In this document: positions 1,859 through 2,573 of the stretch, piece after piece
Position numbering within the stretch: the first letter of the stretch is position 1
How the letters are laid out: each line of letters starts with the position of its first letter
IMG/VR virus record: IMGVR_UViG_2541047790_000011
From: a virus
Taxonomy: Duplodnaviria; Heunggongvirae; Uroviricota; Caudoviricetes
Strand: one strand, 5' to 3'
DNA: 22,955 bases
Notes under the pieces: generated by a model
Database searches by the model: none
What the model was told of the DNA's origin: nothing
The model's input: only the letters and a program-made list of their open reading frames with translations
Translations under genes and position numbers: made by a program

Positions 1859-1872
1859 AGGGGGAGTATATG

Positions 1873-1906
1873 GCACATAAAACAAAGGCGACCGGGGGCG
1901 GTCGCC
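1873..1906 (-). terminator. Rho-independent terminator for the leftward regulatory transcript
   Basis: Perfect 8-bp stem ggcgaccg (1887-1894) / cggtcgcc (1899-1906) with a 4-nt loop; on the minus strand it is followed by UUUGUUUUAU. No U-tract on the plus strand. Confidence 0.45.
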
Positions 1907-1970
1907 AATGGGAAAACACTAAACATAAGCACGGGGATGATAGCCGCTATCAGGCTGGTGGGCAATGCAA

Positions 1971-2159
1971 TCAGTCTGGTTCAGTTCGTTGCCATACCTG
2001 CAATGAGCGCTTTTCCCTGTACTCTTTAAGGAATTGCTCAAGGGCAAAAGCACATGACGCGAATCTTTCTGATTCATGCTCTATCTTTCTGCGCCGTCTT
2101 TTCCGTGCCGGTGATAATGTTTTGGTCAATTCTTTATCGGTCATTGTGTTGTCCTGCAT
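1971..2159 (-). CDS. Hypothetical small basic protein (second gene of leftward regulatory operon)
   Basis: 62-aa ORF (KRRRRK motif) downstream of the 2202-2381 gene on the same strand and upstream of the minus-strand terminator. The internal ATG at 2144 has a better AGGA Shine-Dalgarno. No recognised domain. Confidence 0.3.
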   Translation of the reverse strand: MQDNTMTDKELTKTLSPARKRRRRKIEHESERFASCAFALEQFLKEYREKRSLQVWQRTEPD

Positions 2160-2201
2160 AGCAATGCGCCGTAATACCTTACACCACGGCGCTGGTGATG
2201 G

Positions 2202-2381
2202 TTACTCCTGCTCTTTGGCTTTGCGGCGCTGGCGGCGTTTGATCTCGCCTTTTGCGGCAGTAACTAAAAAACCAGCGGTACTTTCGCCAGGTTCTTTAAG
2301 TTGCTCAATATCATCCATTACTTCATGTGGGATTCTGACAGTTGTCATTTGTGATTTTGCGTTCTTTGCACCAGTTGCCAT
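2202..2381 (-). CDS. Putative small DNA-binding regulator (ribbon-helix-helix-like), candidate satellite repressor
   Basis: 59-aa product MATGAKNAKSQMTTVRIPHEVMDDIEQLKEPGESTAGFLVTAAKGEIKRR has a beta-strand then two helices, as in RHH folds. AGGAG lies 7 nt upstream of the ATG at 2381. Transcribed divergently from the replication operon. Start trimmed from the ORF-track 2549. Confidence 0.4.
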   Translation of the reverse strand: MATGAKNAKSQMTTVRIPHEVMDDIEQLKEPGESTAGFLVTAAKGEIKRRQRRKAKEQE

Positions 2382-2447
2382 TTCTGGATCTCCTAAAAAT
2401 TGGTGTATGTCAGTATACGCAAAAAAAATGATAAAAAAAGGCTTGAA

Positions 2448-2493
2448 GTGTATTTCACCAGTGAGTAAATTAAAAAGCAAAGGTGAAATACAC
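2448..2493. promoter_or_regulatory. 12-bp inverted repeat in divergent promoter region (candidate operator)
   Basis: gtgtatttcacc (2448-2459) and ggtgaaatacac (2482-2493) are exact reverse complements, separated by 22 bp, in the A/T-rich gap between the leftward regulator and the rightward operon. Confidence 0.4.
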
Positions 2494-2573
2494 CTGAAAG
2501 AGCAACGCCCCGCAGTGCTCGCAACACATGCAGGGCGTCTAACCACCAACGATAGAAAGAGTATCGAGGTAGC

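Follow-up and report, generated by a model that had tools for sequence, protein, structure and literature searches.

In P4, as summarized in PMC10111431 from Forti et al. 1999, Kil is a truncated form of Eta that is made from an internal constitutive promoter. According to the same account, the upstream late promoter is the only one from which eta is translated at full length, in translational coupling to an alpA homologue, and this translation stops termination from occurring, letting the late transcript read through. In the Gram-negative phage-inducible chromosomal islands (PICIs), alpA is switched on by the helper, as shown for EcCICFT073, and is required for the induction of EcCIEDL933 (PMC6092414; bioRxiv 10.1101/2022.09.08.507074). 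Fillol-Salom et al. 2018 called the global repressor of these islands "unclear" and named AlpA as the sole known activator (PMC6092414), and matches to the C4 and isrK RNAs in the "Bro zone" of Gram-negative PICIs have been reported (PMC10111431). The nested eta and kil genes, AlpA-dependent induction, and the C4/isrK matches are therefore already known, as are ribbon-helix-helix (RHH) repressors. Here, we describe the region that follows alpA in a 22,955-nucleotide stretch of DNA from a Caudoviricetes record (IMGVR_UViG_2541047790_000011; the window, which denotes this whole stretch). The minus strand of this region appears to encode an RHH repressor with three operator sites, and the plus strand an Eta-like translated frame that ends in an Icd/Kil-like gene. 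We regard this combined model, in which one region is used on both strands, as reasonably probable. A literature search of incomplete coverage found no repressor for Gram-negative PICIs, and neither the three-operator layout with its immunity-like classes, nor the antisense-embedded repressor unit, nor the leader RNA described below.

Besides int, alpA, and replication genes of the primase type, the island in the window has capsid, protease, portal, HNH, TerS, and TerL genes of its own, the gene content of a capsid-forming PICI (cf-PICI; defined in bioRxiv 10.1101/2022.09.08.507074). The position of int and alpA at the left end is shared with EcCICFT073 and EcCIEDL933, whereas the RHH gene, the operators, and the long frame are not described in the papers on those islands. 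As with the Stl/Rpr repressors of Gram-positive PICIs (Staphylococcus aureus pathogenicity islands, SaPIs), the repressor candidate is divergent from the excision/replication operon and would act at intergenic promoters (PMC6092414). In contrast to the larger and unrelated Stl-type proteins, however, the window protein is a 59-residue RHH protein; derepression by a helper protein is established for Stl, and the likeness of the window to it, for which homology was neither looked for nor observed, lies in position and operator layout. Moreover, unlike in the Stl systems, one strand of the window carries integrase, alpA, and the replication genes, and a read-through route is available.

The original prediction had described a divergent switch composed of a minus-strand terminator, two leftward genes, an A/T-rich gap, and an inverted repeat, and all of these are present where it had placed them or within a few bases, as is the 302-codon plus-strand open reading frame (ORF) that spans them (Table 1). 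The gap (2382-2574) is 59% A+T, and its subregion 2382-2500 is 68% A+T, compared to 51% for the whole window. The two arms of the inverted repeat (GTGTATTTCACC at 2448-2459 and GGTGAAATACAC at 2482-2493) match perfectly over 12 bp across a spacer of 22 bp, and the repeat lengthens to 17 nt at 88% complementarity; by arithmetic, chance would place about 0.0005 perfect 12-bp inverted repeats (spacer up to 40 bp) in the gap and 0.06 in the window. The arms are two of three copies of an 11-mer motif (GTGTAT[G/T]TCA). Allowing at most one mismatch, GGTGTATKTCA occurs five times where 0.66 occurrences are expected, a count reached in none of 100 shuffles.

Homologous regions from six divergent E. 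coli islands and 32 further loci, together covering about 20 enterobacterial genera (including Escherichia, Yersinia, Pectobacterium, Xenorhabdus, Hafnia, Kosakonia, Kluyvera, Raoultella, Serratia, and Citrobacter), reveal the arrangement of these copies; individual loci are cited by L numbers. Three copies of a locus-specific 10-mer (GTG-N5-CA) are present in 36 of the 39 loci scanned, placed at +22, +67, and +89 to +106 relative to the start of ylcI, and such copies are all but absent from the rest of the surrounding +/-2.4 kb. Position +22 (O1) is occupied in nearly all of the 39 loci and absent in L004 and L007, position +67 (O2) is occupied in 38, and L004, L007, and L028 each lack one of the fixed-position sites. 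The second copy comes after an invariant CTTGA, which marks the putative -35 element of the rightward early promoter, and the third after a TA...T hexamer 17 nt past that element. Both CTTGA and TA...T are invariant in alignment A1, and other cassettes show TTGACA at the same position. The O1 copy abuts a near-invariant CAGTATAC, whose minus strand reads TATACT, a good -10 for the leftward gene; this -10 region (TCAGTATAC) is invariant in alignment A1 and nearly so across the 39 loci and would function as a promoter element. Loci differ in the orientation of the third copy, which may be inverted or direct (direct in L003, L006, L033, and L037), and the first copy lies outside any rightward transcript; no RNA hairpin is therefore conserved, an arrangement that fits protein operators. 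A fourth operator-like site at 1341-1351, between int and alpA (GGTGCATTTCA, minus strand, one mismatch), was set aside as probably a chance occurrence because it is not conserved in other loci.

The core of the operator changes jointly at all three sites between islands and tracks residues 12-17 of the RHH protein, which form its predicted DNA-contacting strand. These residues fall into 11 classes, each with one operator core, for example MTTVRIP and GTGTATTTCA, QLNARFP and GTGCGATTCA, or S.T.R and GTGTAAGACA; S12, T14, and R16 are common to two otherwise diverged proteins that both have GTGTAAGACA. The type of Icd, by comparison, is independent of the type of operator, as in L003 versus L006. 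The first of these, an O157:H7 island, may correspond to EcCIEDL933. From the co-variation and the site positions, we infer that the RHH protein binds DNA and represses transcription, and repression of both the rightward early promoter and its own promoter through these operators appears likely. The notion of a divergent regulatory switch thus survives in part, in that the satellite is a cf-PICI and the inverted repeat is best read as an operator that co-varies with the adjacent protein.

The 59-residue protein encoded by ylcI matches the YlcI/YnfO family (NCBIfam NF041551) over residues 9-50 with 64 bits (cut-off 30; E = 9e-18). Its 179 homologues come from Enterobacterales only and are named YlcI/YnfO or hypothetical, and a literature search of incomplete coverage found no function assigned to the family. 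An AlphaFold2 model based on a 47-sequence alignment (predicted local distance difference test score, pLDDT, 87.9) consists of an extended N-terminal segment and two helices and can be superimposed on solved RHH (Arc/MetJ/CopG) domains, which bears out the small RHH-like protein of the original prediction. Since neither sequence searches nor Foldseek with the YlcI-like protein found anything, the fold assignment is good but not overwhelming. The protein shares with P22 Arc and Mnt (immI), plasmid omega, and CopG a small strand-helix-helix architecture and short repeated sites that lie over -10 and -35 elements; omega sites occur in direct or inverted orientation, according to the title of entry 2bnw, and P22 and P1 immI also control a toxic or antirepressor gene. 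In contrast to Arc, Mnt, omega, and CopG, with which it has no detectable sequence similarity, the window protein belongs to the YlcI/YnfO family, and its gene overlaps a long antisense frame.

The ylcI gene has its own Shine-Dalgarno sequence (SD), promoter, and terminator, all of them conserved; the terminator hairpin and TTTGTTTTAT are kept in 11 other loci across genera, with compensatory changes in the stem. At 50-65% nucleotide identity, the amino-acid conservation of YlcI exceeds that of the plus-strand frame (BLOSUM 2.75 versus 2.03 per residue), and codon position 2 of ylcI varies least. Because third codon positions coincide on the two strands, codon-position analysis does not separate the strands cleanly, and variability at position 1 versus position 2, together with BLOSUM scores, was used in its place. 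The second leftward gene, orf57, encodes a basic product (pI 9.9) that contains ARKRRRRK and matches phrog_21027 (E = 4e-14). From the alignment of homologues, translation probably starts at ATG 2144, 7 nt after an AGGA. Homologues of the orf57 protein are found at the same position in L002, L004, and L007 (82%, 44%, and 27% identity) and have the motif A.CAFALE.FLK in common. The gene is missing in L003, L005, and L006, islands that retain all else, and is therefore considered an accessory gene; family libraries gave no toxin family match for its product.

In islands without YlcI, this position is taken by other RHH-like genes, and palindromes of their own flank the -10. In L010, the gene at 1290-1452 (minus strand) is accompanied by two copies of TGGTAATTACC, and in L009 the gene at 1254-1450 (minus strand) by GTGACCACCTA and TAGGTGGCCAC. 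These two unrelated genes are unannotated or misannotated by the NCBI Prokaryotic Genome Annotation Pipeline (PGAP), and diverge from the same early promoter, which suggests that immunity cassettes have been swapped among satellites. The repeated replacement of protein and sites together, as in phage immunity regions, is the strongest argument for regarding the RHH protein as the repressor.

A second control module of the same design but in the opposite orientation, of the L009 type, is located within positions 20553-20893 of the window. It comprises an RHH-like ORF of 63 codons (20702-20893, plus strand) containing FNVRISPDLKEQFE, a divergent promoter (-35 TTGACA at 20708-20703, -10 TAGTGT at 20685-20680), a perfect inverted repeat (GTATAGACCTA at 20701-20691 and TAGGTCTATAC at 20671-20661) flanking this -10, and a weaker copy of the leader RNA on the minus strand (20553-20641, 23.7 bits). 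The module probably belongs to the remnant of another satellite beside a tRNA-Ser gene and an IS5 element. A cluster of short perfect or near-perfect palindromes at 20971-21757 (for example, AAAGCGGACAGC/GCTGTCCGCTTT and AAAAACGACAAC/GTTGTCGTTTTT), which looks like iterons or an origin, is part of this second element.

On the plus strand, the long ORF begins at GTAAAGGGGGAGTATATG, with an SD (GGGGGAG) and an ATG at 1870, 11 nt past the alpA stop codon (1856-1858), and an SD and ATG just 3' of the alpA stop are conserved in most loci. Between 1870 and 2574, the icd phase contains no stop codon, compared to 14 and 18 in the other two phases. Shuffling gave a probability of 0.013 for the intergenic part to be open, and of 0.23, 0.46, 0.47, and 0.83 for the other segments. 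In 19 of the 24 loci with an identifiable icd, its phase is free of stops through the A/T-rich promoter region, where the other phases have 3-9. L010 and L008, which are without YlcI, have no stop in the icd phase between the end of alpA and icd, a distance of 800-1050 nt, the counts in the three phases being 0/22/12 and 0/28/13. By arithmetic, random stop placement would leave the frame open with a probability of about (2/3)^n, or roughly 0.002-0.03 per operator class, and of about 1e-15 for eight classes together, a figure that treats the classes, largely unalignable between the conserved elements, as independent. In two of the exceptions, L002 and L004, an uninterrupted frame nonetheless comes within about 25 nt of the icd ATG.

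The two genes on the minus strand occupy the most permissive antisense phase, that with coinciding third codon positions, and over ylcI this plus-strand phase is open in 36 of 36 distinct sequences. The terminator of the leftward unit falls within codons 3-13 of the long ORF, and its phase relative to the frame is fixed among loci. The product of the frame is rich in Ser, Ala, Leu, and Arg, and the plus-strand sequence is unalignable between operator classes. Because YlcI is the better conserved of the two as a protein, the amino-acid sequence on the plus strand looks unselected, whereas its openness and its start site are kept. The long frame is thus conserved as an open frame and probably translated. 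The original prediction had suspected this ORF of being an artefact and had named its conservation, at the expense of the minus-strand genes, as grounds against the switch. The dismissal is probably mistaken: the open frame, the SD and ATG, and the icd phase are all conserved, and this conservation is found alongside the minus-strand genes and does not replace them. A homology search of the 302 residues identified the last 67 codons as Icd-like (NF033153) and gave no family match in the remainder.

The arrangement resembles the left operon of P4 (PLL - vis - eta with PLE - kil). In P4 (NC_001609), a 214-codon ORF (8168-8812, minus strand) overlaps the end of vis/ORF88 (8764-9030) with its start, runs across the isrK and C4 (CI RNA) matches, and has kil as its last 65 codons; the kil sequence is visibly alike to the Icd-like proteins of the islands, for example that of L006. 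Likewise in the window, an AlpA/Vis gene is followed by a long ORF with an internal early promoter and an Icd/Kil-like end, and then by a primase gene; ORF 2575-2778 is nested in frame within 1870-2778, which starts just past alpA and upstream of the early promoter. Given this shared layout, ORF 1870-2778 is read as the counterpart of eta and 2575-2778 as the counterpart of kil, and we lean toward an Eta-like role for the long frame. The two systems differ in that immunity in P4 is exerted by CI (C4) RNA with seqA/isrK targets inside eta, whereas the window has neither C4 nor isrK; the window embeds an RHH gene, an accessory gene, a promoter, and a terminator antisense in the Eta-like frame, together with three operators; P4 is without the leader motif found in the window; and P4 has the late genes sid, delta, and psu in place of cf-PICI late genes. 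The likeness to P4 that had been pointed out previously therefore holds for the layout of the operon and fails for the mechanism of immunity.

PGAP annotates parts of this region as "Icd-like protein, pseudogene, partial" (window 1921-2200 in strain SaT040, 903-1418 in L008, and 825-1418 in L010). These stretches are pieces of the Eta-like frame and not decayed copies of icd, and the annotation appears to stem from long ORFs deposited elsewhere.

Between O3 and icd, the rightward transcript has a predicted structured 5' leader, the second hairpin of which abuts the SD of the icd-like gene (GAGG, 2566-2569). Among 35 sequences, 12 of its 17 pairs have changed on both sides, and pairing is preserved in 83.5% of cells, compared to 30-42% when the partners are slid, with none of 500 shuffles reaching the observed values. 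A covariance model (R1) matches L004 and L007-L010, and the motif was noted also in L011-L042; it occurs irrespective of whether an island has YlcI or C4. The model has no match in P4, and the leader matches no family in Rfam. As a guess, the leader might control the translation of icd or the fate of the transcript.

The possibility that the inverted repeat encodes a CI/C4-like RNA was dropped, as no match to C4 (RF01695) or isrK was found in the window at the gathering threshold, nor on 1800-2900 at E <= 10, with P4, L004, L007, and L008 serving as positive controls. Other Rfam matches in this search (IMES-1 at 16 bits, R1162 antisense at 18 bits, and ToxI) were weak and probably due to chance. 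L004 (1893-2097), L007 (1638-1839), and L008 (1701-1886) carry c4-a1b1, isrK, and C4, a set that sits between the leader and icd or after a first icd, and L007 combines C4 with a YlcI cassette. The RNA immunity module was either lost from the window or never present in it.

Based on these data, a simple model would run as follows. In the quiescent state, the leftward promoter would produce the RHH protein and the small basic protein. The RHH protein would occupy O1-O3, with O1 serving autoregulation and O2 and O3 blocking the rightward promoter, which would keep the toxic Icd/Kil-like gene and the replication genes (DUF4222, primase, and SSB) off, and the terminator at 1877-1906 would stop leftward transcripts short of alpA. 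Helper infection or induction would switch on alpA. The plus strand has no T-tract terminator 3' of alpA, the hairpin at 1887-1906 being followed on this strand by AATGGG, and alpA transcripts should therefore continue. Translation of the long frame by ribosomes coupled from alpA would then guard the RNA against Rho-dependent termination, and the early operon would be expressed whatever the state of the rightward promoter and its repressor. The read-through RNA would be fully complementary to the repressor mRNA, and its transcription would collide with that from the leftward promoter; repressor synthesis should therefore fall and the switch be locked on. The steps from alpA read-through onward, namely translation of the frame, anti-termination, and antisense silencing, are extrapolated from the P4 precedent.

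Alternatively, the region might be a plain divergent repressor/operator switch in which the 302-codon ORF is a meaningless shadow and its last 67 codons, icd, alone are translated. Several observations favour this simpler account and weigh against ours. Over ylcI and orf57, chance alone would readily leave the wobble-aligned phase open (0.47 and 0.83), the N-terminal 235 residues of the long ORF resemble non-protein sequence, with the residue bias described above and no match in the family libraries, and gene callers do not call the frame. In addition, five of the 24 loci break the icd phase, and L015-L017 are less clear. On the repressor side, a simple consensus scan did not list the rightward promoter, the call of which therefore rests on conservation, and the co-variation of operator and protein may partly reflect the physical linkage of neighbouring DNA. 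Nevertheless, a shadow frame would not explain why the promoter region is stop-free in the icd phase across eight operator classes, why the frame is uninterrupted from alpA to icd in L008 and L010, or why the SD and ATG past the alpA stop are conserved, and it would ignore the precedent of P4, where nonsense codons in eta are polar according to PMC10111431; we therefore consider it unlikely. The opposite extreme, in which the long ORF encodes a real protein of a long Icd/Bro-network type and the minus-strand genes are artefacts, could draw on the same conserved frame and start site, on the PGAP alignment of 1921-2200 to "Icd-like" proteins, and on longer Icd-like forms in the databases. It is highly improbable given the higher conservation of YlcI as a protein, with codon position 2 least variable, its confident RHH model and curated family, the conserved SD, promoter, and terminator of its gene, and a plus-strand sequence that does not align between operator classes.

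Two further explanations concern the sites and the cassette. The inverted repeat could be the RNA hairpin of an immunity RNA of the P4 CI/P1 C4 type derived from the icd leader, with the RHH protein not being the immunity factor. icd does lie downstream, as in P1 immI and P4, the related islands L004, L007, and L008 carry C4, isrK, and c4-a1b1, and Mageeney et al. report such matches in Gram-negative PICIs (PMC10111431). However, the window gave no match to C4 or isrK even at E <= 10, the left arm falls in the promoter spacer and hence before the start of any rightward transcript, a third copy is present across the promoter, and the copies are direct in L003, L006, L033, and L037; this explanation is largely refuted and hardly probable at all. 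Finally, the leftward pair could be an autoregulated toxin-antitoxin-like or accessory cassette that adjoins the early promoter without controlling it, as the overlap of O1 with the cassette's own promoter might suggest. This is very unlikely, since the second gene is missing in many loci, encodes only 57 residues, and matches no toxin family, two of the three sites flank the rightward -10 at fixed positions, and unrelated RHH cassettes hold the same position relative to the rightward promoter.

Returning to the model of an RHH repressor combined with an Eta-like frame, a broader form of it can be put forward tentatively, as a possibility that we would not yet favour. The repressor of Gram-negative PICIs and cf-PICIs would be a swappable RHH cassette, antisense inside a frame of about 300 codons that is translated only to counter termination of helper-induced alpA read-through transcripts. 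As parts of the same tentative reading, cassettes would be of the YlcI/YnfO type here and of at least two other types elsewhere, each with cognate operators at the early promoter, and the leader would be a new cis-regulatory element.

Table 1. Features of the control region and its surroundings (positions in the window; promoters, operators, terminator, and leader are predicted)
Feature	Position	Strand	Remarks
Tyrosine integrase gene	1-1239		Left end
alpA (Vis/AlpA-family regulator)	1649-1858	+	Pfam Phage_AlpA, E = 9e-16; same coding sequence annotated by PGAP in SaT040
Long Eta-like ORF, 302 codons	1870-2778	+	Antisense to both minus-strand genes; crosses both promoters and O1-O3
Intrinsic terminator of leftward unit	1877-1906	-	Stem 1887-1906 (GGCGACCGCCCCCGGTCGCC, 1906->1887); U-tract 1877-1886 (TTTGTTTTAT)
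orf57, small basic protein gene	1971-2144	-	57 aa from ATG 2144; 62 aa if start at 2159
ylcI, YlcI/YnfO-family RHH protein gene, putative repressor	2202-2381	-	59 aa
Operator O1 (GGTGTATGTCAG)	2402-2413	+	Overlaps -10 and expected start site of leftward promoter
Leftward promoter, -10 TATACT	2412-2417 (2417->2412)	-	No good -35; A/T tract 2421-2439 upstream
Rightward early promoter	2443-2471	+	-35 TTGAAG 2443-2448; 17-nt spacer; -10 TAAATT 2466-2471
Operator O2 (left repeat arm)	2447-2459	+	In -35/-10 spacer of rightward promoter
Operator O3 (right repeat arm)	2482-2494	-	Just 3' of rightward -10, approximately at transcription start
Structured 5' leader of rightward transcript	2505-2569	+	Hairpin A 2505-2538; conserved linker TCTAACCACCAAC 2538-2550; hairpin B 2550-2566
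Icd/Kil-like gene, 67 aa	2575-2778	+	NCBIfam NF033153, E = 1e-18; last 67 codons of long ORF; first gene served by rightward promoter
Rightward genes, 5' to 3'			icd-like, 75-aa ORF, DUF4222, D5-type primase, SSB
Late genes			HK97-type capsid, S78 protease, portal, HNH, TerS, TerL
clpA	14743-17034		Island ends upstream of clpA
tRNA-Ser (GGA)	17378-17465	-	Beyond clpA

E. coli chromosomes match the window at 99.6% identity, and in strain SaT040 the locus adjoins cspD/yljB. Within the rightward operon, from the icd-like gene to SSB, the end of each gene abuts or overlaps the start of the next. Judged from the ORF list alone, the island has no tail genes, and similarity searches against a phage collection returned only one weak DNA match and one weak protein match. 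Directly 3' of the primase gene, a 27-nt inverted repeat (5187-5248, 78% complementary, 8-nt loop) may be a terminator or part of a replication origin. A single Rfam CRISPR-DR4 match next to the tRNA-Ser gene (17247-17274, 50 bits), with no array, may be due to chance or to a palindrome resembling repetitive extragenic palindromic (REP) elements. The right edge of the window is occupied by an IS5-family transposase gene (22032-22955; NF033579, E = 2e-105).

PICIs and cf-PICIs carry virulence and defence genes between enterobacteria, and the present analysis provides a concrete candidate for their repressor, a 59-residue protein with three defined sites, through which operator differences between islands are explained as immunity classes would be. 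The YlcI/YnfO family thereby gains a likely role, and the PGAP "Icd-like pseudogene" calls in the region can be understood as side effects of the long frame. This frame has apparently been selected to stay open over two genes, two promoters, and a terminator in antisense, which makes it a case for studies of overlapping genes and anti-polarity. If the broader form of the model is true, a single 700-bp stretch would hold both a protein repressor unit and, on the opposite strand, a translated bypass by which the repressor is escaped and probably silenced.

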